NCBI GenBank assembly: GCA_947301965.1
Contig: CAMYUM010000003.1
Location: forward strand, 30,127-94,126
Reading direction: 5' to 3'
DNA length: 64,000 nt
DNA from: an uncultured Azospirillum sp.
GTDB lineage: Bacteria; Pseudomonadota; Alphaproteobacteria; RF32; CAG-239
The notes below the pieces were generated by a model. That model searched no databases. It had not been told where the DNA came from and saw only the letters and a program-made list of their open reading frames with translations. Positions within the stretch are counted from its first letter, which is position 1. The number at the start of each line of letters is the position of its first letter. Positions 7,341 to 32,413 of the stretch are shown here, one piece after another. Both the position numbers and the translations under genes were made by a program.

Positions 7341-7417
7341 TGGTCGAAGTGACTGGACTCGAACCAGCGACCTCTGCGTCCCGAACGCAGCGTTCTACCA
7401 GGCTGAACTACACTTCG
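7341..7417 (-). tRNA. tRNA-Pro (anticodon CGG)
   Basis: reverse complement gives CGAAGTG-TA-GTTCAGCCTGGTAGAAC...CTGCG-TTCGGGA-CGCAG...GGTTCGAGTCC...CACTTCGACCA; acceptor stem pairs, anticodon loop UUCGGGA, CCA encoded. Confidence 0.85.
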
Positions 7418-7525
7418 ATAGTGCCATTATGTTTAGCACAAAAAAAATAGATGACAACCTTTTTTTTATTGCAACGGCGTTTTTTTTAATTTACGCTGTG
7501 TTTGTATTTGTTAATGGAGGGAAAT

Positions 7526-8011
7526 ATGCGTAAAAAATTGGCATATTGGCTGGCAACAATCAGCGGCGTAGGGTATTGTCCGTTTGCATCGGGAACGGCA
7601 GGTTCGCTGGTAACAATTCCGTTGGCGTGGCTTTTGGCCTTTTATTATGGAGTTGTCGGTATTACCTTGGGCGCGGTGGTGGTATTTTTTGCCGGAACGG
7701 CAGCAACCAAAGAGGTGTTGAAATACACAAAGCATGATCCCTCAATTGTTGTTATTGATGAAATGGCCGGACAGTTGCTGAGTTTCGGGTTGGTAGCTAA
7801 CCAATTGGTTGAGCGAACCGATTTGGGCGCAATTTTGATGTATATTATAGGTTTTGGTTTGTTCCGGTTGTTTGATATTATTAAACCGCAACCGGCAAAA
7901 TGGGCAGACAGCCAGGTTTTGAATGCATGGGGTGTTATGCTTGATGATGTGTTTGCCGGAATTTATGCCGCAGTAATTTTGTGGCTGATTAATTTAATCT
8001 TTGTTCTCTAG
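7526..8011 (+). CDS. pgpA: phosphatidylglycerophosphatase A
   Basis: SGVGYCPFASGTAGSL ... VIDEMAGQ ... FRLFDIIKP motifs of PgpA; GGAGGG RBS 7516-7521; ATG 7526. Confidence 0.8.
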   Translation: MRKKLAYWLATISGVGYCPFASGTAGSLVTIPLAWLLAFYYGVVGITLGAVVVFFAGTAATKEVLKYTKHDPSIVVIDEMAGQLLSFGLVANQLVERTDLGAILMYIIGFGLFRLFDIIKPQPAKWADSQVLNAWGVMLDDVFAGIYAAVILWLINLIFVL

Positions 8012-8280: not shown

Positions 8281-8357
<77 letters not shown>

Positions 8358-8403: not shown

Positions 8404-11400
8404 TTATTCAAATGCGTACCTCAGAGATAGCATTCCGGTGTGTTCTTGGTATCCGGAACGATAAGTTCCCATATATGATACGGCAGCAGAAATGTTTTCG
8501 GTCAGTGATTTTGCAAAGCTTAGGCTCGTTTCATAACCTAAACGACGCAATTTGTCGCCGTCGACAACATAACCGCTTCCATTGGACAGATATACATGAG
8601 TGTTGTTTTTGTCAGCCATAAAGTCATAGGTTAAACCGAGATAGGCTTCTGCCCGAATATCATATATTTCTCTGGCAAATCTTAAACTGATGACACCCCG
8701 CAAAATATCAGCATTGTCGGCAGATACTTTTTGAGCGGCGCTATCGGTATATCGGTCTCGTTTGATGTGATAGTAGCGGAAACCTGCTTCCGGTGTGAAA
8801 TATTCAAATTGATAACCGGCCATGCTTGCAACAGATGCAACCCATACGTCATATCTGGCGTTATAAGTATCATCAAGAGCATATTTCTTTTCTTTATAAT
8901 TCGATTGTCCGTAGGAAATAATTCCATTGATAAACTGTCGGCAAGGCTTGTATTCCCCATAAACAAAGCCGGTGACAGAATTTATGTCTATGTCTCGGGA
9001 CATAATATCAACGTCTGTTCTGTCAATTTGTAAACCGGCACCGAACTTGTAAGCGCGGTCTAATTCTTTTTCAAGACCAAATATAATGCCGCGGCTGTTG
9101 GAGTTTGAACCATCAATATTTTGGCGAGTACGCATCTTGGTATCGCTCAAATAAGGATTGCCCCAGGCGGTAACGTCGCTGAATTCGTCACTCGATAATA
9201 AACCGATTTGTTTGTTGCGGAGATATGAATCAACGGTCTTAAATAAAATGGAATTTTGTTCTGTTACGGTATTTTGGACAACCGCAGTTTCTGTCGGAGC
9301 AAGAGCCTTGAGGTTATGGACAAATCCGGCAGCATCATGTTGCGCCAAAGCGGCAAGTTTATCTGCAGCAATTGCACCGCTCGATCCTTCGGCAAAAGGA
9401 GCTTCATCTACCCATGCTCCGGCGGCATTTGCTACCCAAGATCTGGCTCCTTGCTCTTTAGCAACATCTGCAGCAGTTGATTTTTGAAGAATAGAGAAAA
9501 CACCAAACTTGCCTTTGGTCTTGATAAATTTGTACATATTGTTTTCGGCAACATCAACGCCTTCTTCGGTATGTGATACATCTTTATCAGCAAAATCACC
9601 GTTGTGGCTGCCGGCTTTAATTAAAGTTACTTCGCCATAATTGATGCCTTGAGCCAGAGTAGCTTTTAGTTTTGCTCCGCTGTTGATGGTCATGTCGTCA
9701 GTAATATTTAACAGGCCGTGCTGTCCATCTTCAAGACCATTAATTTTTAATGATAATGTGGATGAACTATCAAGTTTCATAGATTTGAGATTAACGGTGT
9801 TGGCGCCAATGTCTATCTTAGAGTTTTTGGCGTTTATTGTATCGGTATTATCCAAATAATTTGAACCGACTTTTAATGTAGAATTATTAACATTAATTTT
9901 ATTGCCGCTGATGGTGTTGGACAGTGTCCAGTTATTGTTGACGTTGATTACGCCGTTGTTATTTGTGCTTGAGATTGCATTTGTAAGAGCGGTGCCGGTT
10001 TTCAAATTTAAAGTGCCATTGTTTGTAATATCGCCGTTAACAATAGTGTTAACCAAGTTTATTGTTCCGTTGTTTACGACGGAATTGCCAATTGTAGAAT
10101 TCTTTGTGGTCAAATTACCGGTATTGGTAATGTTGGCGTTGGTAACAGAGCCGTTTAACTGATTTGTTCCGGAAGTGGTCATATTAAACGCGGTAGCGCC
10201 GGTAATTGTGCCGTTGATAATGCTGTCTTTAATGCCTACGGTTGCGCTGCCGTTAGTAACATTTGCTATGGTAGAAGCCCCGCTGACGGTTACGTTATCA
10301 AAGTTTAACGCAGTAGCACCTTCGCCAAGTTGGAAACCATGTCCGTTAAGGTTGAGAGTTTCTGCAGCACCGCCGGAGATACCTTTGATGTTTAATGTTC
10401 CTTTGGTGTCACCCAAATCGTCGCCCACATTATATGTCTTACCTTGTTGATTAGCCGTAAAGTTTTTGGTTGCATTGGTAGTGTCGTTGTTGACCAATTT
10501 CAGAGTATCACCAAGAGAGGTGTCGGTAGTCGTGCCACCATCACGTCTTGAAAAAGCAACCTCAATTGAGAGTTTGTCGTCGCTCAATCCTAATTTGCCA
10601 TAATCGGTGCTGGCGGTGGTGGTGTGTTCCTGATATACTTTGTTCCAAGCGGTATTTGCTTCGATAGTATCTGTTGAAGTGGTCGCTCCCGATGTTCCAA
10701 TAATGTATTCCGTTGAATTAAATGCTGCTTGTACGGCACTACTCAATGCCAGTTTGAGGGTGCTTGATGTCGCCGGATTTAAGACTTGTACGCTGAAATC
10801 ATCGGCGAGAGAAGTTGTTGACGGATCCAAGATATTAACGGAAGTCAGGGTGAGAGTTCCGGAAGAGGCATTGGTCAAATTAAACGTATCGACGGAAGAA
10901 CTTGATAGATTCATATCTATGGCCAAATTGCCGTTACCGTTAATAGCACCGATGTCATGAGATGTGATGGTTCCGTTTGAAACAGTGATTGTTCCACTAT
11001 TTGCGTTTAACGTTCCTGCAACTTCGGCTCCACTATTTAGTGTCAACGTACTATTAACATATGTTGTACCGGTTCCGGCAATAGTCTTTGCCAATACGCC
11101 GGATAAGTACAAATTACTGCTGTTGGTGATACTTGAATCGGCAATATTTGCCGCGGTTGTGGTTAAATTACCGGTATTGGTAATGTTGGCGTTGGTAACG
11201 GCTCCATTTAATTGGCTGGTTCCGGAAGTGGTCATATTAAACGCGGTATCGCCAGTGATTGTACCATTGAGAATACTGTTTGTAACACCGATTGTAGCAG
11301 AACCGTTAGTAACGGTAGCTATGGCAGAACTTGAATTGACGGTTACGTCATTAAAGTTTAATGCGGTAGCATCATCACCGACTTGAAAACCCTGATGTGA

Positions 11401-14400
11401 GGCAAGATTAAGTGTCTCAGCGTTGCCGCCAGATACACCGTTGATGTTAACAGTGCCGTTGGTTGCACCTAAATCATCACTGAGGTTATATGTCGCACCT
11501 TGTTGATTAGCAGTAAAGTTCTTGGTCGTATTAATTGTATCTTGGTTAACCAACTTTAAGGTATCACCCAAAGGACCATCGTCAACTCTGTCTCCTTGAA
11601 CGGTTGTTTCATGATCTTGTATATAACCAATGGAATCATTAGTAGTAGTTGTTGTTGTAAGACCTATAGTTCCGTAATGTTCTATGGTATCTTCTCTATG
11701 CCAACTAGAGAGTTGGTCGTTCCAATTTGTTGTTGCAGTTATTTGATCTGACCCTGTAACGGTTTGTGTAGTTTCAAATAACTTATGTATGTCGCTACCA
11801 CCTAGCTGTGATATAACCGCATCGGATAAAGCGAGCTGTAGGGCAGATCCGGAGGCATTATTTATTATTTGTACTTTATAATTGGCATCTACTCCGGTAA
11901 AGTCTCCGGTGAGGTTCAAATGTGATAGAGTTATGGTGCCGGCAGAATTGTTTGTGGCAGAAATGACATCAGCCTGTTTGCCTGAGGCGTCAAAATCTAT
12001 GGTATAATTTACATTGGCATTACTGTTAAGGTGATTTATTGCATATGTATCATATGAAGACGTGTTGCCGAGATTTATAGAACCGGCAGTAAAGTTAACG
12101 GTGTTGGCATTGGTAAATGTATCCGTGTTAAAAATTAATCCACCGTTACTATCGTTCATAGTTGCATTTGCCATGCCGACGGTTCCATTGATGGTATTAT
12201 TACCGCTTAATGTTAATCCGTAAGCGGCAGTACTTGCGGCAATATTACCATTGAGAATACTGTTTGTAACACCGATTGTAGCAGAACCGTTAGTAACGGT
12301 AGCTATGGCAGAACTTGAATTGACGGTTACGTCATTAAAGTTTAATGCGGTAGCATCATCACCGACTTGAAAACCCTGATGTGAGGCAAGATTAAGTGTC
12401 TCAGCGTTGCCGCCAGATACACCGTTGATGTTAACAGTGCCGTTGGTTGCACCTAAATCATCACTGAGGTTATATGTCGCACCTTGTTGATTAGCAGTAA
12501 AGTTCTTGGTCGTATTAATTGTATCTTGGTTAACCAACTTTAAGGTATCACCCATGTTCTCGTAGGAAGTATCACCGCCTTCTGTTCTGGTAACTGTAAT
12601 GCCAATAGAGTCATCTGTCGTGGTCTTTGTTTTCAGGCCTAGTTGTCCGTAGATTTCTTTATCGGAAATAACGGTTGTTTGATATATTTTGTCCCATGCT
12701 GTTGTGGTAGCAATTGCTTCGTCGGTTGTTGAACCTTCGATCGTTTCTAATAAATGTTCTGAGTCCAGGCCTGATGCAAGTTGCAATTTTAAAGTAGAAT
12801 CGGCATTTCCATTACTAATAATTTGTATTACGTCTTCAGTACTTAAATCTTCGTAATTGCCAATAATATTAATATTCCCAATGGTAATGGTTCCGTGAGA
12901 CTCTGCTGTTGTAGTAATCTTGTCTGCCGTTTTTTCGGTAGCATCAACGTCAATTTTATAGATTAAGCCATTTGAACCTAGCTCAACTGTGTTAATGGTG
13001 TTTGAATCAATATGATCATTAATTTGATTGATTTCTCCGCTATTGTTATCGGTTGTCAGCAAGGCAATTTGATTAAAATTTCCGTAGGTGATGTCGCCAT
13101 TTGTTTGAGTAATTTTACCTAAAATTAATTTAGCACCATTGTATAAATTTACGTTACTGTTAAGTATGTCGTTGTTAAATACATAAGTTCCGCCCTGAAT
13201 GCCGGTTTTGTTGTTAATGTTGATTGTACCTGAAGAATAAAGTCTGCCGCCAAATGAAATTTTTTGCCCCTCGGCAGCGTTTAGTGATATCGTACCGCCA
13301 TCATTGAATATATCACTATAATTTTCGCCGGCTTTGTTGTTATAAAAAACGATATCTCCATCATCACTTGTAGCATCTATAGATATTGTTCCTCGGTTGT
13401 ATATTGCTCCGCCTTTTCCCCCTGCAATATTGCCGAGAAAACTTCCACGGATGCTGCCATATGTGGCGTTACTACCTACATAGATGGCACCACCGGAGCC
13501 ACCGGCTTTGTTGTTAATAAAGTCTCCGATAATGTTATTTATTTTGCTGTTGGTGTTCGTATAGGTATATATTGCTCCGCCATCCTCACCGGCAGTGTTG
13601 GCAATAAAGTCACTGGTAATGGTACCAATAGTGGCACTGTTATGATAGATTGCTCCAGCTTTCCTGAGAGCACTATTACCAATAAAATCACCGGTGATAT
13701 AATTTCTATTTCCTTGTTTTGTATATATTGCACCACCACCATCAGTAGGTTTGGAGGGGGCATCAACTTGCCATAAACCTTCAGATCTGTTACCAATAAA
13801 ATTACCGCGTATTTCATTGATTGTCTGGTCCGTTCCAAGATTTAGCGCGCCGGCATTTTCCTTATATGCTACGTTGCCAATAAAATTGCCAATGACGGAA
13901 GTTATTTTAGTTTTACCACTAATTGCGACAGCTCCGCCTCCATATTTGTGTATGGTAGAATTGTTGATGAAATCACTTTGAATAGTGTCAGTATAGGTGT
14001 GTGCAGAAGTGCTTTTAAGAAATACTGCACCACCTTGACCTGCTTCTTCAATATTAAAAAATAATTTATTATTAACAGCAAGTGTTGCCTCTTCGTCTCC
14101 GCTTCCACTTTCATTTGCGTAACGTGTTTCTGTTTCGGTATAACCAGTGGGCAGAGTATATTGATATATATAGTCTTTGACTGGTGAATCGCCGATGACA
14201 TGTGGTATTTCGAACGAGATTGATCCGGTGGCTGTTGATGTTCCTTCATTCCAAGAAGGATCGGCAGTTCCTGATGTCCAAGATATATTATCAATATCTT
14301 TAAGATTGATGTTGTAATATTGTGTATTACCGCTTCCATCATTGACGGCAAAGTCGTAGCTTTCGGATGTTGCATTAGACCGTTCCCATGCGGTTTCTGC

Positions 14401-14514
14401 TGCCGCTGTTGTCGGTAAGAAAAAGACACCGCAAAGTAAACTGACTGTTGTAGTCAATCTGTGGATTCTTAAGTTTTTTATCGGTTTGTAAGTCAACATT
14501 AGTTTTTCCGTCAC
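8404..14514 (-). CDS. giant autotransporter (2036 aa) with polymorphic-membrane-protein (Pmp)-type GGAI/FxxN repeats, ~330-aa tandem passenger repeats and a C-terminal beta-barrel translocator
   Basis: N-terminal signal (LLCGVFFLPTTAAA); repeated GGAIY/GGAVF + FIGN/FINN motifs; C-terminal ~280 aa ending ...LSLRYAFE with aromatic terminus typical of autotransporter barrels. Confidence 0.8.
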   Translation of the reverse strand: MTEKLMLTYKPIKNLRIHRLTTTVSLLCGVFFLPTTAAAETAWERSNATSESYDFAVNDGSGNTQYYNINLKDIDNISWTSGTADPSWNEGTSTATGSISFEIPHVIGDSPVKDYIYQYTLPTGYTETETRYANESGSGDEEATLAVNNKLFFNIEEAGQGGAVFLKSTSAHTYTDTIQSDFINNSTIHKYGGGAVAISGKTKITSVIGNFIGNVAYKENAGALNLGTDQTINEIRGNFIGNRSEGLWQVDAPSKPTDGGGAIYTKQGNRNYITGDFIGNSALRKAGAIYHNSATIGTITSDFIANTAGEDGGAIYTYTNTNSKINNIIGDFINNKAGGSGGAIYVGSNATYGSIRGSFLGNIAGGKGGAIYNRGTISIDATSDDGDIVFYNNKAGENYSDIFNDGGTISLNAAEGQKISFGGRLYSSGTININNKTGIQGGTYVFNNDILNSNVNLYNGAKLILGKITQTNGDITYGNFNQIALLTTDNNSGEINQINDHIDSNTINTVELGSNGLIYKIDVDATEKTADKITTTAESHGTITIGNINIIGNYEDLSTEDVIQIISNGNADSTLKLQLASGLDSEHLLETIEGSTTDEAIATTTAWDKIYQTTVISDKEIYGQLGLKTKTTTDDSIGITVTRTEGGDTSYENMGDTLKLVNQDTINTTKNFTANQQGATYNLSDDLGATNGTVNINGVSGGNAETLNLASHQGFQVGDDATALNFNDVTVNSSSAIATVTNGSATIGVTNSILNGNIAASTAAYGLTLSGNNTINGTVGMANATMNDSNGGLIFNTDTFTNANTVNFTAGSINLGNTSSYDTYAINHLNSNANVNYTIDFDASGKQADVISATNNSAGTITLSHLNLTGDFTGVDANYKVQIINNASGSALQLALSDAVISQLGGSDIHKLFETTQTVTGSDQITATTNWNDQLSSWHREDTIEHYGTIGLTTTTTTNDSIGYIQDHETTVQGDRVDDGPLGDTLKLVNQDTINTTKNFTANQQGATYNLSDDLGATNGTVNINGVSGGNAETLNLASHQGFQVGDDATALNFNDVTVNSSSAIATVTNGSATIGVTNSILNGTITGDTAFNMTTSGTSQLNGAVTNANITNTGNLTTTAANIADSSITNSSNLYLSGVLAKTIAGTGTTYVNSTLTLNSGAEVAGTLNANSGTITVSNGTITSHDIGAINGNGNLAIDMNLSSSSVDTFNLTNASSGTLTLTSVNILDPSTTSLADDFSVQVLNPATSSTLKLALSSAVQAAFNSTEYIIGTSGATTSTDTIEANTAWNKVYQEHTTTASTDYGKLGLSDDKLSIEVAFSRRDGGTTTDTSLGDTLKLVNNDTTNATKNFTANQQGKTYNVGDDLGDTKGTLNIKGISGGAAETLNLNGHGFQLGEGATALNFDNVTVSGASTIANVTNGSATVGIKDSIINGTITGATAFNMTTSGTNQLNGSVTNANITNTGNLTTKNSTIGNSVVNNGTINLVNTIVNGDITNNGTLNLKTGTALTNAISSTNNNGVINVNNNWTLSNTISGNKINVNNSTLKVGSNYLDNTDTINAKNSKIDIGANTVNLKSMKLDSSSTLSLKINGLEDGQHGLLNITDDMTINSGAKLKATLAQGINYGEVTLIKAGSHNGDFADKDVSHTEEGVDVAENNMYKFIKTKGKFGVFSILQKSTAADVAKEQGARSWVANAAGAWVDEAPFAEGSSGAIAADKLAALAQHDAAGFVHNLKALAPTETAVVQNTVTEQNSILFKTVDSYLRNKQIGLLSSDEFSDVTAWGNPYLSDTKMRTRQNIDGSNSNSRGIIFGLEKELDRAYKFGAGLQIDRTDVDIMSRDIDINSVTGFVYGEYKPCRQFINGIISYGQSNYKEKKYALDDTYNARYDVWVASVASMAGYQFEYFTPEAGFRYYHIKRDRYTDSAAQKVSADNADILRGVISLRFAREIYDIRAEAYLGLTYDFMADKNNTHVYLSNGSGYVVDGDKLRRLGYETSLSFAKSLTENISAAVSYMGTYRSGYQEHTGMLSLRYAFE
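11264..11570. repeat. 307-bp segment identical to 12248-12554 (intragenic tandem repeat unit, period ~984 bp)
   Basis: read directly: identical string ccattgagaatactgtttgtaacaccgattg...ggtatcaccca at both positions. Confidence 0.85.
12248..12554. repeat. second copy of the identical 307-bp segment; a diverged third unit lies at ~10120-10520
   Basis: as above; encodes duplicated DTLKLVNQDTINTTKNFTANQQGATYNLSDD... block. Confidence 0.85.
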
Positions 14515-14604: not shown

Positions 14605-16893
14605 TTATCGTCCGTTGTTTTGGTTTTTGCTTAGTGGCAAAATAGTCTTATTGTCTCTAAGCTGTTGCTCGTCAGGTATGCTGGCAATAAGATTATTGGT
14701 TTTATAAAGCCATTGCTTGAAAGCAGGTATGTTCTCTCGGGGCAAAACATATTGCTTACTTGCGCCAAAGTAAGATAAAATCAAAATTTTTTGGTCTTTT
14801 TGCTTTTCAAGTGTCTGCCAAAGCTGTGATTTTAGGCCGTGATCTGCTACGAAGAAGCTACCATCACCGCGTTTAAGTTTCCACTGGTATATAAATTGTG
14901 CCTTAATGGTGTCTGTCTGTTCAATTTGTCTTCCTTGAACACACTGTTTCTTGGGCCTTGATGGCTTGTCAGCTGTTGTTTTAGGAGCTTTTGTCTTACG
15001 AGGTATGCTCTCACCTTTTTGATAGACTGTAAAACCACCAATTTGATAAAGTTTTTGCTTGAAAGCGGGTATGTTTTCTTTAGGCAGAACAAAAGCGTAT
15101 TGAACCTGAACCAAAAGACCATTGTTTTCTTGTTTTTTGATGGTGTTCCAGAGTTGAGATTTTTGTTTGTAAGAGAGTTTTTTCCCATCGCTTGTGAACA
15201 AACGCCATCCGGCACAAAAGGAAGTTTGTGTAATATCAGTTTCAGTCCTCTGGCGCACATGGGGAGCAGGTTTTTTAGGGAATTTTGTTTTTGAGGCAAT
15301 GATGCCTTTTTCCGTTAAAAGCCATCGTTCAAGTGCAGGAATGTTTTCTTCGGGTAAAACATAAGTTCGGTTATTGCCACTAAAAGCATAAATGAAAAAT
15401 TTGTTACGATTTAAAGATTTAAATTCCTTAAAAAGTGCAGATTTTGCTTTTGTACCCTTAATGGATTGTCCGTCAAGCCCATTTAGGTGCCAGTAGCGGA
15501 ATTGTGTTGTTGAAAGGTCGGTTTCAAGCTTTTGGCGTAATGATAGGGTGTCGTTGAGGATTTTTGTCTCTGATGCAATGATGCCCTTTGCTGTAAGAAG
15601 CCATTGCTGGAAGGCGGGTATATTTTCTTGTGGCAAGACATATTGTTTGTAAGTTTTAGATTTGCCGTGTTTAACTGGGATGAAGAGGTTTTGTTGGTTT
15701 AATAGGCATTCTTCAAAAAGTAAGGATTTGGTTTTATGATTCCAGATAGGGTCATTATTTTTATCTCTTACAAACCAAGATCTGCAAAAGTTGTTCTTAG
15801 TTAAATCAGTTTTAAGCAATTGTCTTAAGGGTTCCAGGGGTTTCTGAGCAATTAACCCTTTTTGTTTGATAAGCCATTGCTGAAAAGCGGGTATATTTTC
15901 TTGAGGTAAAACAATAACAGGATGTGCTGAAGAAACACAGACAAATAGATTTGGATTTTTGGATTTAACTTCTTCAAAGAGTGCGATTTTAGTTTCGTAG
16001 TTTAGGACTTTGCCTTTTTCAGACATTATCAGCCAAGAGGTAGAAAATTGTGATTTGGTGATATCGGTATTAAGTTTTGCTCTAACGGATTTTAGAGGCT
16101 CTTGAGCTATAATATGTTTTTTTTGCAAAAGCCAATCCTTAAAGAAATGAATGTTCTCCTGAGGTAAAATAAAAGATGTTTTTCCATGTGACGGAACCAT
16201 GATGAATAGGTCTTTGTGTTTTGAAGATTTAAACTCGTTCCAAAGAGAAGTTCTGATTGGTCCTGGCACAGATTTGCCATTTTCGTTAGTTAGAATCCAA
16301 TGAGTATAAAACTGCAGATTGGTCAAATCAGTTTCAAGCACTTTTCGTTGAGATTTTCTTGTTTTTGAAGCTGTAATGCCTTTTTCTTCAATAAGCCATT
16401 GTTGAAATGCAGAGATGTTTTCCTGTGGTAAGGCGAGGGCGGAAAATCCGGTAGTTGAAGCGGTGACGAAAAGTTCTTGATGTGAATTTCGAAAAGTGTT
16501 CCATAGATTGATTCGATCTTGAATGGTGGGGGCTTTGCCGTTTTTGTCTCTTAAATGCCAAGAATGCACAAAATTGCTTATTAAAAGATCCGTATCGAGC
16601 TTGGGTCTTTGTGACTTGGCCAAAATAAGGCCTTTTTCTGCCCAAAGGCGTTTTTTAAAAGCAGGAATGTTTTCTTCGGGTAAAACGTGAATGAAGTGAT
16701 ATTTTGCTGAAAGCTGAATAAAGAGTTCGGGGGCAAATAACACAAGTTCATCCCAAATCTTTAGTTTTTGTTTTCGGTCAATAGCTTTGCCGTTTTGGTC
16801 CTTCAGACCGCATGCTTTGAAGAACTTGTTTCGGGTTAAATCGGTATCAAGTTTGGTGCGTTCATTTTGAGTAAAAGGAGATGTCTCTTCCAT
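14605..16893 (-). CDS. tandem-repeat protein (762 aa; ~8 units of ~88 aa with VLPQENIPAFQQWL...KGIIA and KLxTDLTxxxF..W motifs); function unknown
   Basis: self-similarity obvious in the translation; no signal peptide; Lys-rich. Confidence 0.75.
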   Translation of the reverse strand: MEETSPFTQNERTKLDTDLTRNKFFKACGLKDQNGKAIDRKQKLKIWDELVLFAPELFIQLSAKYHFIHVLPEENIPAFKKRLWAEKGLILAKSQRPKLDTDLLISNFVHSWHLRDKNGKAPTIQDRINLWNTFRNSHQELFVTASTTGFSALALPQENISAFQQWLIEEKGITASKTRKSQRKVLETDLTNLQFYTHWILTNENGKSVPGPIRTSLWNEFKSSKHKDLFIMVPSHGKTSFILPQENIHFFKDWLLQKKHIIAQEPLKSVRAKLNTDITKSQFSTSWLIMSEKGKVLNYETKIALFEEVKSKNPNLFVCVSSAHPVIVLPQENIPAFQQWLIKQKGLIAQKPLEPLRQLLKTDLTKNNFCRSWFVRDKNNDPIWNHKTKSLLFEECLLNQQNLFIPVKHGKSKTYKQYVLPQENIPAFQQWLLTAKGIIASETKILNDTLSLRQKLETDLSTTQFRYWHLNGLDGQSIKGTKAKSALFKEFKSLNRNKFFIYAFSGNNRTYVLPEENIPALERWLLTEKGIIASKTKFPKKPAPHVRQRTETDITQTSFCAGWRLFTSDGKKLSYKQKSQLWNTIKKQENNGLLVQVQYAFVLPKENIPAFKQKLYQIGGFTVYQKGESIPRKTKAPKTTADKPSRPKKQCVQGRQIEQTDTIKAQFIYQWKLKRGDGSFFVADHGLKSQLWQTLEKQKDQKILILSYFGASKQYVLPRENIPAFKQWLYKTNNLIASIPDEQQLRDNKTILPLSKNQNNGR

Positions 16894-17063
16894 TAAATCA
16901 ATCCTTATAAGGAGTCAATCTAATTGCCGGGTATAACAGATTTGGGCGGAAAAGTCAATGAAGTTTTGTCCAATATGTCCATTCTAAAAAATGTAAGAGT
17001 TTTTAGGAGTTGCGGACTGTTTTTACATAAATTTAATATATTTTTTTGCTGTTTTGTGTTATC

Positions 17064-18353
17064 ATGGACAAAGATAGGGTGATGGAGACTGCTATGGCTG
17101 AAGATGAGGTAAATGAAGATAAAATCAACACTGAGGGATATAAGCGAGATGCGCAATATCAGGTTGATACCCTTAAAGGTGAATTGTTTAGTGCGGGTGG
17201 TTTTAACCTGACGACAAATGCGTTGACTCTCAATTATTCCGGAGATGACTGGTTTGGAACGGCTTGGGCAGAGCATTATACAACTCTGATCCATGAGCTT
17301 CATCATCATGATAATGCATGGGGGGGAATGTATACATATCCGGTAAGCGCCGAGCAGGCCTATAAAATAAATATGCATGATGAGATTTCGGCCAACCTGG
17401 CAGAGTTGGTTGCGATGCGTGAAGAATATTTGAAAAGCGGAGATATTTCGGTTTTTGATGAAAAGGGCAGTAAGTTTGATTTTTATAAAGAGGCGATTGA
17501 AAATGGCAAAATAGAAGTAAACAGCCAAAATGTTTCTAAATTTAATGATGAAATGGGTTTTATGGCTAACGGAGTCCGCGATATGTGGGAACGTGATCGT
17601 GCAGAAAGTTATATTAAACAAAATTCGAGTAACGCAAAACTTTTTTATGATAAGAGTGGAAAATATGGTCGATATTATGATGAAAATTATCAACGGGCGG
17701 TCAAAAAAGCCTATGATATCGGTGGTATCAATTTCAGTGACTACATGGACAGAGATGTCAATATTCCCGAAAAAGGACGGGAGGCGCTTGATGCAATAAA
17801 GTCGCGGAGCAACGAAATAAGTTTTGACAATAATGTTAAAAATGAACCGATTAACAGCCTTCCGCCGCGCGAGCCGGGGTGGCGTGAGCATGAGGATAAG
17901 GACGGCAGTCGGTTTTCTCCGGTGCAAACAAAATCGATAGTTGATTTAAGAAAACCCGTAATTAATCGTCCGCGGGGCTATGTGGGAGCGGAACAGGGGC
18001 AGCAGGTTAGGTCACCTTCTGACCATCCGGAAGCAAATAGAAAAGTTTTAGTGGAAAAAATGCAATCTCAACCATCTGAAAGGACTGCAAATAATTTTGA
18101 AGAATTAAGAGCAAGATTTAGTGCGGATCATGAGCGTTTGCAACAAGTGCGTGAAAAGTTGGGAAATGGACATGAAGAATTATCCTCGGAATCAAAACTT
18201 TCGGAACATAATCAGGCATCGGGAAAAAGTCTTGCCGAGATAATAAGAGAAAAAAGATTTGAATCGGCAACTCCAAGCCGTCCGGCAAATACACAGCCGT
18301 TTTCCAGAGAAGCAATGCAACGAGCTATGTCAGACCGGCAATCCGGCAGATGA
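17064..18353 (+). CDS. HExxH-motif protein (putative zincin-like metalloprotease fold) with long low-complexity C-terminal tail
   Basis: TLIHELHHHDNAWGG motif; the opposite-strand ORF 16920..17927 has I/F-rich antisense composition; start may be 17064, 17082 or 17095 (GGAGA RBS before 17095). Confidence 0.6.
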   Translation: MDKDRVMETAMAEDEVNEDKINTEGYKRDAQYQVDTLKGELFSAGGFNLTTNALTLNYSGDDWFGTAWAEHYTTLIHELHHHDNAWGGMYTYPVSAEQAYKINMHDEISANLAELVAMREEYLKSGDISVFDEKGSKFDFYKEAIENGKIEVNSQNVSKFNDEMGFMANGVRDMWERDRAESYIKQNSSNAKLFYDKSGKYGRYYDENYQRAVKKAYDIGGINFSDYMDRDVNIPEKGREALDAIKSRSNEISFDNNVKNEPINSLPPREPGWREHEDKDGSRFSPVQTKSIVDLRKPVINRPRGYVGAEQGQQVRSPSDHPEANRKVLVEKMQSQPSERTANNFEELRARFSADHERLQQVREKLGNGHEELSSESKLSEHNQASGKSLAEIIREKRFESATPSRPANTQPFSREAMQRAMSDRQSGR

Positions 18354-18394: not shown

Positions 18395-18661
18395 ATGAAA
18401 AAAGCTATATACCTGTTTTTGTTGTGTTTGTTATTGCCGGCGTGTCAGGAGCTTGACGGTTTGTTAAACACAAACAATTTTGTTGTTTCAGAAGCCGATG
18501 ACAATCGCATGGTGGTGTTGAACACCAATACGCGTGTTTATCACGACCCAAAATGTAAAATTGCAAAAAGTTGCTCTAAAAATTGTGTTGTAACGACAAA
18601 ATACGATGCAAAGTCAAAAGGAGCAACCGCCTGCCAAAAGTGTAACGGCGGTAATAAATAG
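18395..18661 (+). CDS. small Cys-rich lipoprotein (88 aa; lipobox LLPAC; YHDPKC...C..C zinc-ribbon-like motif)
   Basis: signal + lipobox; six Cys; GAAAGGTGG RBS. Confidence 0.6.
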   Translation: MKKAIYLFLLCLLLPACQELDGLLNTNNFVVSEADDNRMVVLNTNTRVYHDPKCKIAKSCSKNCVVTTKYDAKSKGATACQKCNGGNK

Positions 18662-18682: not shown

Positions 18683-18716
18683 GCGGAACAGCTAGTGCTG
18701 TTTCCACTCTTTTTTG
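18683..18716. terminator. bidirectional terminator between convergent genes (GGAACAGC-tagt-GCTGTTTCC + T-run)
   Basis: A8 upstream, T6 downstream. Confidence 0.65.
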
Positions 18717-18733: not shown

Positions 18734-19945
18734 CTAGTTTTTGGCAAAGAAGGTGATGTAGCCTGTAGCGGCTTTTCCGTTAATGGTCATCTGGATTTTG
18801 ACTTCGACGTTGTAGATGTCGTCTTCAACGCTGGTCCAAGTGGTTTTAATGACTCGGACACTGTTTTCATCAAACATCATCTTGTCGGTCAACGGCTCAT
18901 ATAATATGCCATTATCAAGGTACACGTTTTCACGCTTAAACGCTATTTCTGTGGTAAAAACACCAAGATCCAGCTCCAGAATATCGGTATGTAATGTCTT
19001 GAGCAGATATGGAGATCCGCTGGAGAGTTTTTCAATCGACTTGGCATCGATCTTGAGTGTTGCCTTTTTGAACTGGAGGTCTGCACGGTTTGCAATTTTT
19101 ACCACATTGCCATTTGCAGGATGATAGCTGGTGTTTTCGCCGTAAGCATAAGCCGTTTCGGTAAATGTTTCAGTGTCCTTGGTTCCATCGGAATATTCCG
19201 ATGTTACTTTTGCCTTAGAAACAAAACCGGCACGCCCATCCTGATTTTTCAGGGGCAGCAAGCTTTTCTCTACCATATTGCTGGACAGGATATACTTGCC
19301 GTTTATCTTTTCAATCGGGCGTGAAGCTACAACCTCGTTGGTTACAACATAAGTTTCGCGGTTAACCATCACTGTAATTGAGTGATTGTAGATTCTGCGA
19401 GCATAGGCTTTACCATCCTTTTCTACCGAACTGGCGCTTTTTACGGTCATATCATTGTTGACAATCTCGTCATAGCCATAGTATGGCATTGTTATCTTGG
19501 TATAGCCGTCATCGTATTCAGCCACCTGAAAGGTGAGAGGATACTCAAATTTGATTGTGCCATAATCAACCGTATATACCTGTACCGAATCGGTAGTTTT
19601 GATGTATGCGTCGTGTTTTGATGCAGTTGCTTTGCGAGATGTTTTGACTTTTGGTTCATAAGTTGCCCAGTTGGCAACAGTCACATTTTCTTTCACGTTT
19701 TTTAAGCTGTTGATCAGCTCAATCGAGAACTTACTATCGAATTCAGCTCTGGTCTGACCATATACCTGAATCCAGCTTTTGTAAGAGATAGTAGTACCGC
19801 CGTCATTGGCTTCAACAGTCACAGTGGCATCTCTGCCACTGTCGGCAACCTCGCTGGTTGCAATGTTAGAGATAAAGGTCTCCTTCTCGCATGCGGCGAG
19901 GACAATCACCGCCAAGGCAGCGATGATGGTGTTCACGTGTTTCAT
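18734..19945 (-). CDS. lipoprotein of unknown function (403 aa), GC-rich/foreign codon usage
   Basis: MKHVNTIIAALAVIVLAAC lipobox; hand-counted GC ~57% in a 60-nt sample vs ~32-38% in backbone samples. Confidence 0.7.
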   Translation of the reverse strand: MKHVNTIIAALAVIVLAACEKETFISNIATSEVADSGRDATVTVEANDGGTTISYKSWIQVYGQTRAEFDSKFSIELINSLKNVKENVTVANWATYEPKVKTSRKATASKHDAYIKTTDSVQVYTVDYGTIKFEYPLTFQVAEYDDGYTKITMPYYGYDEIVNNDMTVKSASSVEKDGKAYARRIYNHSITVMVNRETYVVTNEVVASRPIEKINGKYILSSNMVEKSLLPLKNQDGRAGFVSKAKVTSEYSDGTKDTETFTETAYAYGENTSYHPANGNVVKIANRADLQFKKATLKIDAKSIEKLSSGSPYLLKTLHTDILELDLGVFTTEIAFKRENVYLDNGILYEPLTDKMMFDENSVRVIKTTWTSVEDDIYNVEVKIQMTINGKAATGYITFFAKN

Positions 19946-27644: not shown

Positions 27645-28889
27645 TTAGAAGTTATATTGGAACTGAACGCCAACCATGTTACTGTAGTTGTCATGTCTGG
27701 CTTTGATGTTGCTAACTTCTCCAAGAGGAGTATAGCTTGTTTCATCAGTTCTGCCCTTGCTCATGAACAAGTGGGCATAACCGACGTCAACCTGCCAGTT
27801 CTTTGCCTGATAGCTGACACCGAGTGTGGTCCACAAACGGTTGGAATCAGGAATACGGGCCGTGCGGTGGAATTTATCACGAATCGGTGTCGGGTCGTAA
27901 GAAATACCGGCACGGAACGTCCACTCAGGAGAGTAGTAATAATCTACACCCAAAGAATAAGTCCAAGTGTTTTTCCATTTTTCCGGAACGGCTGCAGTGA
28001 TACCAGTGGTCGGAGAACGCATTACAAAGTCATCAAAGATGTCCCATTTGGTCCAACGAACGGCACCAGAAAGACCAAATTTGTCATTGAGTTTGTGATA
28101 CCCAGAAATTAATAACTGGCTCGGTAAGGTCATTTTTGAAACGCCGGGATATGTGCCATCCTTAGCTGTGCCGGTGCGTTTGATTGTATGGTCTCCGGTA
28201 ACTTTTTGAGCAGTATTCAGGCGGTAAGAAACACCGAAACGAGTGTCTTTGACCGGTTCATACATAATACCAAAGTTGTAGGCAAATTCCCAACCGTCCA
28301 AGTCAAATTCGTTACGAGAGTTCGGCATAAGTGGGTGAGCAGTATTTATAATATCGCCGTGAACATAACGATAGATTAAGCTTGCGCCTAAAGTAACCTG
28401 ATCAGTTACCTTATAAGCTCCGCCGAAAGCTACGTCAACAACATCCAATTCAGTACTGATACCATGATGAGCCCCGAACCATTCTTTGTTGTAAATAGAA
28501 GCCAAGCCGAACGGAGTATAAACACCACCACCAATTACAGCCTTATCATTGATTTTGTATTGTGCGAATCCCGACGGTAAGAACTTATAAAAATTCATTT
28601 TTCCGTAAGGTTTGTCAGCGACGGGGGTGCCGTTGTAATAGGTTGTTCCATCAACAAAAGAGTGCATTTGAACGGTTGATAAACCTAATTGTCCGCCGGT
28701 GCCTTTCAAGATCATACCGGCAGGGTTGAATGAAATAGCAGAATAGTCATCACCGACCACGCCGATGCCGGCAAAAGCGCGGCCAAGACCTGTGGCAGAG
28801 TATTCGTTGAGTTGATAGCCTGATGCATTGGCATTATTAGCGGCAACCAAGCTCAAGCCCAGCAATAAAAACTTAGTGTAGTTCTTCAT
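27645..28889 (-). CDS. fadL: outer-membrane long-chain fatty acid / hydrophobic compound transporter, FadL/TodX/OmpP1 family
   Basis: signal peptide then SGYQLNEYSATGLGRAFAG N-terminal motif; C-terminal aromatic residue (F). Confidence 0.8.
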   Translation of the reverse strand: MKNYTKFLLLGLSLVAANNANASGYQLNEYSATGLGRAFAGIGVVGDDYSAISFNPAGMILKGTGGQLGLSTVQMHSFVDGTTYYNGTPVADKPYGKMNFYKFLPSGFAQYKINDKAVIGGGVYTPFGLASIYNKEWFGAHHGISTELDVVDVAFGGAYKVTDQVTLGASLIYRYVHGDIINTAHPLMPNSRNEFDLDGWEFAYNFGIMYEPVKDTRFGVSYRLNTAQKVTGDHTIKRTGTAKDGTYPGVSKMTLPSQLLISGYHKLNDKFGLSGAVRWTKWDIFDDFVMRSPTTGITAAVPEKWKNTWTYSLGVDYYYSPEWTFRAGISYDPTPIRDKFHRTARIPDSNRLWTTLGVSYQAKNWQVDVGYAHLFMSKGRTDETSYTPLGEVSNIKARHDNYSNMVGVQFQYNF

Positions 28890-29500: not shown

Positions 29501-32413
29501 ATGAGACTAAAACTTACAGGTTGTTTTTTAGCTGCAACATTGGCGGTTAGTTATAATGCTTTCGCTCAATACGGAGGGATTGCAAGTAACCTGTATGAGA
29601 ACGCAAGACGCGGCAATTACGGCGCGATTCAACGTGTTATCGACAGCGGATACTCAATTGATACCACAGATGTCAACGGCAATACGGCTTTGTGCATGGC
29701 TTTGATGCACAGAGATTCTTATGCGTACAGTTTTTTGAGAAAATTCGGGGCTGATTCGCAACATGTTTGCACGAGGTATTTGCAAGGTAATACATATGCG
29801 AGCAGGTATTCGGGACCGGGTTTTGAGTGGAAACCGGCTTACACCGTGGGTGCAGTAGCATTGTTGGGTGGAGCTGGTGTTGCTGCGGCACTTGCCGGCG
29901 GCGGAGGAGGAGGTTCTCATCATTCTTCCGGCGGCGGTTCGGGCGGCGGCGGTGATGACCCCGGCGGCGGCGGTTCCGGTGGCGGTGATGACCCCGGAGG
30001 CGATGAACCAGGTGGCGGTGATGATCCGAGCGGCGGCGGTTCCGGCGGTGAGAGCGGAATTATTTCAGATAAAGAAATTGTTACCCCGTTGAACTCAAGC
30101 TTTTTTGAAACCGACGAATACAAAAAAGGCAATTTTTTAAGCAAAATTAATGCCTCAAAAGCTTATGCGCGTTTTTACGGTTTGGATGAAGACGGGAATA
30201 TGGCAACCCAACTTAATCGTGTGATGGTCGGAGTGATTGATACCGGTATTTATGCGGATAATGCCGATTTTGCAACCACAATTACGAGCGGCTTTAACTC
30301 TGACTATGGTCCGTGTTTGAACGGTGATAATAAGAACTGCTGGAAATATTCGGGCGGAAAAGTTTATTTTTCGGAAGACAGCAACCAGTATTATACAATG
30401 TCGCAGGCCGATTATAATACATGGGTAGCGGAATATAGCAGCAATTATAATTGGGATAATAATAAAGATAATTTCTTCCCGGAAAGAGGAACCAGCAATA
30501 TGCATGGAACTCACGTTGCCGGTATTATCGGAGCCGATAAAAACGGTTCGGGTATGCACGGAGTTGCTTTTTCAAACGCGGTACTCTTGGGCGGAAGATG
30601 GGATTTTATGTCACGTCCGGGAGATGTTATATCTAAAATGGTTGATGAAGGCGCCCAAGTCATTAATATGAGTTTCGGGCTTGATGCCAGAGTATATCCG
30701 GCCACAGATTTGAATGATGATTATTACAGTCAATACAGAACCAGCACAAATAATTATATTGTATCGGGGGTTTTAAAAGCAGCAAATAATAATGTGGTTA
30801 TGGTTATGTCGGCAGGAAACGAATCGCAGACACAACCGGGGCTGTATAACGGTATGCCCAATCTAACGGCGTTAAACGGGGCTTTGAACAATTTGTTTGT
30901 TACGGTAGTGGCGACGGGATCAGACGGATCAATTGCAAATTATTCCAATGCGTGCGGTGTTGCCAAAAACTACTGTATTGCCGCACCGGGTGGAGATTCT
31001 TCGAGCAAAATTTGGTCAACCGGTACTTATGATGTGACAATGTACGGTTCGTACGGAACATCAATGGCGGCACCGGTGGTTTCAGGCAGTATTGCATTGC
31101 TGATGGGGGCATATCCTTATTTGACACCGCAACAGATTGTGTCGTTAATTTTTGAAAGTGCCAATAAGAGCGGTATATATGCTAATAAGGACCTTTATGG
31201 TAATGGTATGTTGGATTTAGCTGCGGCAACGAATCCACAGGGATATTTGGGTACGATTTCATCAACAGATGCAGATTCAAGTGTGGTTAACATAAATTCA
31301 AGCAGAGTTGTTGTTCCGTCAGTATTTAAGGAAGCCCTGCAGAATAATATGCCAAAAACTATGGCGGTGTTTGATAAATATAAACGCCCGTTTAATATCA
31401 AATTTGATTCAATGGTTCAAACAACCCACAGCGGGCATAAGAACTTTAAGAACGATTTGTATAATTTCTCTCGTCATCAGCCGAAAAAGACGGTCAGCGA
31501 TGACAGTTTTGCTTTTGCTTATGCGCCTTCTTCGTATAGCAATAATGACGGAGGCATAGGTATTGCAGATGTTTCGTACAAAGATGATAATGCCGAGACA
31601 TCATTCTTCTTTGCCGAAAACAGTTTATACAGCTCCGGCGATTATAATGATAAAGCTATGTATAATCCTTATTTGGCAATGAACGATGCTTATGGTGTTG
31701 CTCATAAAATGTATTGGGATGATAATCTCAGCTTTAAGATGAGCTTTATGACCGGTGAAAACGGGTTGTATGACGGCGATCGTAATTATCATGATTATAA
31801 CTTTGATAATCGCTCCTATGCGTTTAATACAGAGGTTTCGTACCAAGTTACACCTAAGTTTAATGTAACGGCAATGACCGGTATGTTGGCTGAAGATGAT
31901 GCTTTGCTTGGTATGAACGGACGCGGTGCGTTATCAATCGGTGACAGTAATACTTATTATGCCGGGCTGATGTTGGAATGGCAGCCGTTTGAAAATTGGA
32001 GTTTCGGCGGAGCTTATTATCATGGTTGGACCGATGCATCAAAAGTTTATGGCAGTATGATTAGCACATCGCAACTGATGAGCGACAGTTTTGCTTTGGA
32101 CGGACACTATAATATTAATAAGACCGATGTTGTCGGTTTGCAAATATCTTCTCCGTTGAGGATTTATAACGGTCATGCGGATTTTGATATTGCAACCGGG
32201 CGTGATAATTATTCTAATGAAGTTTATCGTGAAAAAATCAGGGCTAACCTGAAACCGTCTTCAAGAGAATATAAGTTTGCGCTGTATCATAACCGTGAAA
32301 TAACCGACAGCGTGTTGTTCAAGAGTGAATTTGCAGTTCGCTTGCACCCAGAACATCAAAAAGATGCCGAAACCGATTATCGAGCAATGTTCGGTTTGTC
32401 GTGGGCATTCTGA
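29501..32413 (+). CDS. subtilisin-like (S8) serine protease autotransporter with N-terminal ANK-like repeat and Gly/Asp/Pro-rich linker
   Basis: signal peptide; catalytic triad motifs VGVIDTG (D), HGTHVAGII (H), GTSMAAPVVSG (S); C-terminal ~300-aa beta-barrel ending FGLSWAF. Confidence 0.85.
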   Translation: MRLKLTGCFLAATLAVSYNAFAQYGGIASNLYENARRGNYGAIQRVIDSGYSIDTTDVNGNTALCMALMHRDSYAYSFLRKFGADSQHVCTRYLQGNTYASRYSGPGFEWKPAYTVGAVALLGGAGVAAALAGGGGGGSHHSSGGGSGGGGDDPGGGGSGGGDDPGGDEPGGGDDPSGGGSGGESGIISDKEIVTPLNSSFFETDEYKKGNFLSKINASKAYARFYGLDEDGNMATQLNRVMVGVIDTGIYADNADFATTITSGFNSDYGPCLNGDNKNCWKYSGGKVYFSEDSNQYYTMSQADYNTWVAEYSSNYNWDNNKDNFFPERGTSNMHGTHVAGIIGADKNGSGMHGVAFSNAVLLGGRWDFMSRPGDVISKMVDEGAQVINMSFGLDARVYPATDLNDDYYSQYRTSTNNYIVSGVLKAANNNVVMVMSAGNESQTQPGLYNGMPNLTALNGALNNLFVTVVATGSDGSIANYSNACGVAKNYCIAAPGGDSSSKIWSTGTYDVTMYGSYGTSMAAPVVSGSIALLMGAYPYLTPQQIVSLIFESANKSGIYANKDLYGNGMLDLAAATNPQGYLGTISSTDADSSVVNINSSRVVVPSVFKEALQNNMPKTMAVFDKYKRPFNIKFDSMVQTTHSGHKNFKNDLYNFSRHQPKKTVSDDSFAFAYAPSSYSNNDGGIGIADVSYKDDNAETSFFFAENSLYSSGDYNDKAMYNPYLAMNDAYGVAHKMYWDDNLSFKMSFMTGENGLYDGDRNYHDYNFDNRSYAFNTEVSYQVTPKFNVTAMTGMLAEDDALLGMNGRGALSIGDSNTYYAGLMLEWQPFENWSFGGAYYHGWTDASKVYGSMISTSQLMSDSFALDGHYNINKTDVVGLQISSPLRIYNGHADFDIATGRDNYSNEVYREKIRANLKPSSREYKFALYHNREITDSVLFKSEFAVRLHPEHQKDAETDYRAMFGLSWAF
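29880..30060 (+). repeat. simple-sequence region (GGCGGCGGTGATGACCCCGG-type units) encoding GGGSGGGGDDPGGGG linker
   Basis: three tandem copies of an imperfect ~30-nt unit (ggcggcggtgatgaccccgg-like, read directly from sequence). Confidence 0.7.

Follow-up and report, generated by a model that had tools for sequence, protein, structure and literature searches.

We analyzed a 64,000-nucleotide (nt) stretch of the genome of an uncultured Azospirillum sp. (contig CAMYUM010000003.1, forward strand, positions 30,127 to 94,126; the whole stretch is referred to as the window), and within it a gene for a protein with an HExxH motif, the active-site signature of zincin metallopeptidases. The corresponding plus-strand open reading frame (ORF) opens with a TTG at 17046, has its first ATG at 17064 and ends with the stop at 18353; an upstream stop rules out a longer N-terminus, and three in-frame ATGs are available. 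The true start is likely ATG 17094, giving a coding sequence at 17094..18353 and a product of 419 amino acids (aa), rather than ATG 17064, since a Shine-Dalgarno-like GGAG (17084-17087, plus strand, read directly from the sequence) precedes it with a 6-nt spacer, the closest homologue (P0002) begins at the equivalent Met, and a 419-aa entry in NCBI and ENA, equal in length to the product from ATG 17094, falls in the same protein cluster. Residues are nevertheless numbered here from ATG 17064 (429 aa), as in a preliminary description of this DNA.

The HExxH ORF is a real gene under purifying selection. Near-identical copies were found six times in independent datasets, and compared with the closest orthologue (at locus L076, 74% identical and of the same short architecture), the ratio of nonsynonymous to synonymous substitution rates (dN/dS) was 0.07 for the catalytic-type domain (residues 24-250) and 0.08 for the conserved segment that follows it (residues 251-310), both with saturated dS, and 0.30 for the polar tail (residues 311-429). 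The antisense ORF that covers the same DNA (16920..17927, minus strand, 335 aa) had been put down to composition in the preliminary description. This fits our results, since its length is not conserved (341 stop-free codons here vs 232 in the orthologous DNA of the closest relative) and the sense strand is 60% purine.

Proposed active site and predicted fold

The protein contains TLIHELHHHDNAWGG, and positions 17283-17399 translate to TLIHELHHHDNAWGGMYTYPVSAEQAYKINMHDEISANL. This region holds the HExxH motif itself (H77-E78-L79-H80-H81; 17292..17306, plus strand), with H77 and H81 as putative zinc ligands and E78 as putative general base, and a second motif (D106-E107-I-S-A110-N111; 17379..17396, plus strand), in which E107 lies 26 residues after H81. 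Conservation was counted in an alignment of 145 representatives with a mutual identity of ≤50%. H77, H81, and R119 were present in 141 of 141 sequences, E78 in 140 of 141 and E107 in 140 of 140, while A110 was found in 132/141 and position 106 was Asp in 102/140 and Asn in 23 more. Y122, Y141, Y183, Y209, G220, G221, and F224 were also invariant or nearly so. The conservation of HExxH together with E107 is far beyond chance.

The motifs lie in a catalytic-type domain (residues 24-250; 17133..17813, plus strand) that is conserved across the representatives and predicted to form a three-stranded sheet followed by ten helices. Two AlphaFold2 runs, with 34 sequences (predicted template modeling score, pTM, 0.69) and with 145 sequences (pTM 0.75), agreed on strands 27-37, 45-48, and 53-59, a short helix 63-69, HExxH on helix 72-86, D106-E107-I-S-A110 on helix 96-125, and then seven helices up to residue 246. 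The predicted local distance difference test score (pLDDT) was 90 to 98 for the N-terminal ~250 aa and 85 to 93 for the strands ahead of the active-site helix, in agreement with the globular N-terminal region that had been proposed. Gluzincins combine HExxH with a Glu on a following "glutamate helix," which has the motif (E,H)xx(A,F,T,S,G) (PMC7213743), and E107-I-S-A110 fits this motif as defined there. Three marks of a zincin of the gluzincin type were found in the sequence and the predictions, i.e., a sheet before the active-site helix, HExxH on a helix, and a Glu on the next helix, and the suggestion in the preliminary description of a zincin-like HExxH with a downstream Glu as third ligand was borne out to the extent that the helix pair is predicted, E107 is invariant, and homologues exist.

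Because a sheet and an HExxH helix occur together with a next helix whose conserved Glu belongs to an E-x-x-A motif, we read the product as a probable gluzincin-type zinc metallopeptidase of an undescribed family confined to uncultured gut and rumen Alphaproteobacteria, with a probability of roughly 75% on the sequence and model evidence. By analogy with known gluzincins, one Zn2+ would be bound by H77 and H81 of the active-site helix and by E107 of the glutamate helix; E78 would activate the metal-bound water for attack on the peptide bond, D106 would orient a ligand His, and the transition state could be stabilized by Y122, Y141, Y183, or Y209, or by R119. In this reading, the family is a new family-level variant of a known enzyme superfamily and is absent from Pfam, NCBIfam, PHROGs, and PDB.

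The preliminary description had also assigned the protein a disordered, low-complexity tail of ~200 aa rich in Ser, Pro, Arg, and Glu, and this holds for only part of that length. Residues 251-310 were modeled with pLDDT 86 to 96, although their only regular secondary structure consists of strands 282-284 and 288-293, and they include the family-wide conserved N260, R283, S285, D294 (Asn in 26 representatives), and P303, in a segment of 11.7% Pro, 10% Glu, and 10% Arg. Within them, we delimited a post-catalytic "strap" by conservation, pLDDT, and dN/dS (residues 258-305, VKNEPIN...DGSRFSPVQTKSIVDLRKPVINRP; 17835..17978, plus strand). As this region is confidently modeled and conserved despite having little regular secondary structure, the strap probably folds back against the catalytic domain and has a structural role. 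A latency role as an aspartate or cysteine switch is unlikely for it, with no conserved Cys or His and with D294 replaced by Asn in the 26 representatives. In most relatives (90/110 representatives, ~82%), an insert of 100 to 500 aa (median 201) separates the domain from the strap, and the short forms without it comprise the protein from the window (the query) and 19 others, i.e., 18% of the 110.

It is the variable polar tail proper, residues 311-429 (17994..18350, plus strand; ending in ...MSDRQSGR), that has low confidence (pLDDT 35 to 69, with four low-confidence helices). It is indeed rich in Ser, Glu, Arg, and Gln (13, 13, 12, and 9%), while Pro makes up only 5%, and the net charge is +2 over 119 aa. 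With an entropy of 3.83 bits, its composition is therefore biased instead of truly of low complexity. The tail would be flexible and may serve in targeting or regulation.

Comparison with known metallopeptidases

The best profile-profile match obtained for the family was to ArdC and the MPTase-PolyVal family (PF18818). With hhalign, the family aligned to ArdC of R388 at P = 0.0026 and to an alignment of 15 ArdC sequences at P = 0.0014 (65 columns), the aligned columns spanning a β-hairpin "aYY..I," HExxH, and the beginning of the glutamate helix. Two other HExxH proteins used as controls, the M41 domain of FtsH (taken from the window) and the M50 peptidase RseP, gave P = 0.53 and P = 0.37, respectively, and their motifs were not aligned. 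ArdC and the present family share the "aYY...I" hairpin ahead of HExxH, a Glu in the position of third ligand on the next helix, directly after an acidic residue (E228-E229 in ArdC, D106-E107 here), and a similar spacing from the second His to that Glu (24 vs 26). ArdC, which has IrrE and Spartan among its neighbors, holds its metal through H201, H205, and E229, with H205 oriented by E228, the residue before E229 (PMC7213743). ArdC and the family differ in that the query had no match to PF18818 at E ≤ 1 (one of 70 distant members matched at E = 0.036, below the gathering score), that ArdC-N, the single-stranded DNA (ssDNA)-binding domain of ArdC (PF08401), was not detected in the query or its 33 homologues, that the catalytic-type domain is ~225 aa here, with seven extra helices and the C-terminal strap, and that the gene is chromosomal and not on plasmids or phages.

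Pfam DUF6782 (PF20573, "putative metallopeptidase family") was matched by 4 of 70 distant members, all below the gathering score of 27 bits. Three of them, which form one distant subgroup (P0141, P0163, and P0172), matched over ~100 residues running from the sheet through HExxH to the glutamate helix, with E-values of 0.005 to 0.025 and scores of 14.3 to 16.6 bits; the query and its close relatives had no match at all. DUF6782 is itself uncharacterized, with no mention found in the literature searched, and a second word-indexed protein search with a profile of the DUF6782-like subgroup returned three members of the family and no bridge to annotated proteins.

In the Foldseek lists, the only alignments with a low root-mean-square deviation (rmsd) were to zincin cores. 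The minigluzincins projannalysin (4jix; 56 columns, 3.7 Å) and selecase (4qhg; 53 columns, 3.5 Å) superposed on the edge strand, the HExxH helix, and the glutamate helix, and MMP-11 aligned over 52 columns at 5.2 Å. The minigluzincin alignments had E-values of 4.5 to 7.7, which are not significant, there was no sequence similarity, and at ~110 aa in total these proteins are half the size of the domain studied here, which carries other decorations. IrrE-like and SprT-like viral proteins were among the weak structural matches in BFVD. ImmA/IrrE (peptidase M78) and SprT/Spartan are likewise minimal HExxH zincins, and IrrE has a Glu as third ligand on the next helix; in contrast, the third ligand of Spartan is a His, neither family matched the query or the 33 homologues in Pfam, and neither a partner repressor gene nor a DNA-binding module was found here. 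Classical gluzincins (thermolysin M4, M13, M2, and M3) have HExxH and a Glu ~20 to 26 residues past the second His, in an "E-x-x-(A/S/G)" helix motif, but they show no detectable similarity to the family in sequence or global fold. The preliminary description had named DUF4157, M91 (NleD), and proteins like anthrax lethal factor (LF) as possible relatives. None of these was recovered in Pfam, at E ≤ 1 for the query and 33 homologues or at E ≤ 0.1 for 69 distant members, and the Foldseek alignment to LF (1j7n) had an E-value of 7.8 and an rmsd of 27 Å. We consider the resemblance to ArdC, DUF6782, and the minigluzincins weak but specific.

Several results weigh against the assignment as a gluzincin peptidase. 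The query, its 33 close relatives, and 69 distant ones had no significant match in scans of Pfam, NCBIfam, and PHROGs, nothing significant was found in PDB with sequence profiles built from 34 and from 145 sequences, and Foldseek gave no match at E < 0.4 against PDB (with two models) or BFVD; the domain resembles no solved protease beyond a core of ~55 residues. The AlphaFold2 layout was taken from the pLDDT and secondary structure of the models. The alignment to ArdC has a probability of 18%, and its register pairs E107 with E233 of ArdC and not with the ligand E229. HExxH zincin domains can be without demonstrable protease activity; for ArdC itself no substrate was found, and its E229A mutant kept its function (PMC7213743). 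The query has no export signal, since it lacks a hydrophobic N-terminal segment (as the preliminary description had noted, no signal peptide is present; the best 19-aa Kyte-Doolittle window scores 0.43). Finally, no neighbor family was conserved throughout 75 loci, and the gene context therefore yields no functional partner and no clue to function.

Family distribution, termini, and cell location

A word-indexed protein search returned 34 relatives, the only names given being "hypothetical protein [Alphaproteobacteria bacterium]," and an exhaustive profile search over clusters at 50% identity found 376 representatives at E ≤ 1e-3, with 297 at E ≤ 1e-10. Across GTDB, scanned with one genome for each species, 71 genomic loci were found, all in metagenome-assembled genomes (MAGs) and nearly all with record titles naming uncultured Alphaproteobacteria; the few loci with other taxonomic labels are probably binning errors. 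Wherever record titles named the sample, it was human gut or ruminant gut, and not the amoeba or arthropod associations that the preliminary description had anticipated. The family is expanding within its host genomes. Several genomes had at least two family loci, tandem paralogues were present in 11 loci (L003, L005, L006, L007, L009, L030, L035, L053, L055, L056, and L073), and several MAGs held further unlinked copies, while the window holds one. In one member, P0108 (759 aa), the C-terminal half of the catalytic-type domain appears to be partly duplicated, with the "...NDENF...YTIGGIDYS..." stretch repeated.

Signal- or lipobox-like N-termini were present in ~41 of 135 complete representatives (~30%), spread over several clusters, while the query and most of its own cluster have no N-terminal signal. 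In one group of relatives, whose N-termini are mostly signal-like, the sequence closes with a conserved C..DF..IP.VLK.C motif. These features suggest that some members reside in the periplasm or at the surface. Cys is absent from the query, whose domain is acidic (net charge −16), and the family has 0.7 to 0.86 Cys per 100 aa compared with 1.5 in the housekeeping genes of the window; even versus odd Cys counts, used as an export test, gave no clear signal. At the other end of the proteins, the last residue was Arg in 65 of 164 sequences (40%, 6.5 times the local background), and family-wide enrichments were also seen for Gly at −2 (6-fold), Gln at −4/−5, Arg at −6/−7, and Leu at −8. The last 25 residues of members had a mean charge of +2.6 to +3.2, the query ends in ...DRQSGR (18330-18350), and a module of the form "LRFE/LRGL ... 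amphipathic helix ... GR" is seen in many members. This Arg-ended motif fits no known sorting signal and is equally present in members with and without Sec signals. Because ~30% of members have signal- or lipoprotein-like N-termini, we lean toward action of the family outside the cytoplasm; for the signal-less copy in the window, this is roughly a coin toss.

One explanation for such a copy, raised in the preliminary description, is that it is a translocated or secreted effector. Its C-terminal tail would direct it out of the cell without Sec, for instance through type I or type IV secretion, and in the gut it would cleave a protein of the host or of a competitor. The lack of a signal peptide in the query, in a family that otherwise seems extracytoplasmic, would agree with this, as would the Cys-free, acidic query and its Cys-poor family, the positively charged and often Arg-ended C-termini, the lineage-restricted, multi-copy, and tandemly duplicated distribution, and the siting of the gene next to an autotransporter-like gene (see below), where genes have been gained and lost. 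However, the scanned parts of the window contained no secretion-system genes except for one type V (autotransporter-like) protein, and none was a conserved neighbor across the loci; the C-terminal motif is as common in members with Sec signals and matches no nameable sorting signal, and nothing links the protein to any host target. We found no direct support for an effector and regard one as possible but unlikely. A more far-reaching proposal, in which the family would consist of fast-diversifying, multi-copy, exported gluzincins whose distal strap completes or gates the domain, whose Arg-ended C-terminus is a new export or latency signal, and whose targets are host mucosal or competitor proteins, is speculative and less likely again.

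The opposite location has the lower probability of the two, and we hold it to be quite improbable that the query is a cytoplasmic regulatory or DNA-associated minimal gluzincin (ImmA/IrrE-, Spartan-, or ArdC-like) that cleaves a specific intracellular regulator or a DNA-bound protein and uses its polar, basic tail to bind nucleic acid or a partner. The nearest domains by profile and local structure (ArdC/MPTase-PolyVal, IrrE-like, and SprT-like), the missing signal peptide, and the small net positive charge of the tail would suit such a role, but the signal- or lipobox-like N-termini of ~30% of relatives across clusters, and the group of mostly signal-bearing relatives that ends in a Cys pair, do not. 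Neither an adjacent helix-turn-helix (HTH) repressor gene, as in ImmA/ImmR pairs, nor a conserved HTH neighbor in the 75 loci, nor an ArdC-N domain was found, and at +2 over 119 aa the tail is only weakly basic. It is at least as doubtful, and in our estimate slightly more so, that the protein is a catalytically silent zincin-like scaffold, whose site binds a metal or ligand and which would function through binding instead of cleavage, for example like an adhesin, an inhibitor, or a chaperone-like factor. ArdC, which functions independently of a metal-ligand Glu, offers a precedent (PMC7213743), and the domain has no solved protease counterpart outside the core; on the other hand, the general base E78 and the three ligands are near-absolutely conserved at ≤50% identity, as expected of an active enzyme. 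A chance ORF or a decaying pseudogene could be suspected from the missing ~200-aa middle module of most relatives and from the ambiguous start codon. This is effectively refuted by conservation, with a dN/dS of 0.07 to 0.30 against an orthologue of the same short form, 18% of representatives sharing that form, all catalytic residues intact, and six near-identical copies in independent datasets.

Uncultured gut and rumen Alphaproteobacteria are widespread, and nothing is known of their interaction with the host or with neighboring bacteria. The family is a candidate for such an interaction, with ~376 clusters, several and often tandem copies per genome, a predicted intact metalloprotease active site, and frequent export signals. 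Its definition would annotate hundreds of "hypothetical proteins" and offer a biochemical target. Should it be an ordinary housekeeping peptidase, the gain would be a new family entry only; the interest lies chiefly in its restriction to, and expansion in, an unstudied gut lineage.

Genomic neighborhood

The window is an ordinary chromosomal region, with genes for QueA, KdsB, PgpA, FtsH, TilS, GlmM, UvrC, PPDK, and ATP synthase subunit a. The HExxH gene is located in a lineage-specific gene block (8.4-21.3 kb) of slightly low GC content (0.376 to 0.392), with two tRNA genes at its edge (7344-7417, minus strand, and 8281-8354, plus strand). Possibly the block is a variable island; an integrase was not found.

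Upstream of the HExxH gene and divergent from it, a 762-aa protein (14605-16893, minus strand) consists of about eight repeats of ~90 aa with VLP(Q/E)ENIPAF(Q)QWL at the end of each; a signal peptide is lacking and no Pfam match was convincing. Another gene encodes a 2036-aa protein (8404-14514, minus strand) with a signal peptide, a match to Chlam_PMP repeats, and the C-terminus ...LSLRYAFE, features that suggest an autotransporter or a surface protein of the PMP type. The divergent arrangement with the repeat protein, as given in the preliminary description, applies to the window and not to the locus of the closest orthologue (L076), where the divergent upstream neighbor is an orthologue (59% identity) of the 2036-aa autotransporter-like protein. 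Since the repeat protein is absent from L076, its gene is an insertion here, and we dismissed it as a candidate for a conserved partner.

Downstream in L076 are orthologues of orf142 and orf208. In the window, two genes for predicted lipoproteins, both missing from L076, sit between the HExxH gene and orf142. One is of 88 aa (18395-18661, plus strand) and has a four-Cys, Ada-like metal-binding pattern, and the other is of 403 aa (18734-19945, minus strand) and has no family match; a bidirectional terminator-like hairpin at 18685-18704 is common to both. We discarded the 88-aa lipoprotein gene, immediately downstream of the HExxH gene, as a possible partner or immunity gene, because neither L076 nor any other locus contains it. 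No RNA element was detected with Rfam in the vicinity of the HExxH gene.

Of the 75 loci, 10 had a TerB-domain gene directly upstream, 8 had a gene for a 584-aa protein upstream, and 10 had an ABC exporter ~3.6 kb away, all of which we judged to be synteny among close relatives. The TerB/DUF533-domain gene encodes 151 aa (7463-7915, plus strand, at locus L047) and in the 10 loci, which belong to one subgroup, lies ~26 bp upstream of the HExxH homologue. Searches with tblastn gave no match against plasmids and, against phages, two human-feces contigs labeled "UNVERIFIED: Bacteriophage sp." (MT836799.1, locus L077, and MT838386.1). The homologue on MT836799.1 has a signal-anchor-like N-terminus and the motif HEYQH, and adjoins murA, a cytidine deaminase gene, and a GNAT gene; this contig, the one of the two that we examined, has housekeeping genes of bacteria and is probably bacterial DNA in a virome data set.

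Elsewhere in the window, a subtilase (Peptidase_S8) of 970 aa (29501-32413, plus strand) that has a long extension at its C-terminus adjoins a gene for a FadL/TodX-type outer-membrane channel (27645-28889, minus strand), and is a probable further exported protease.

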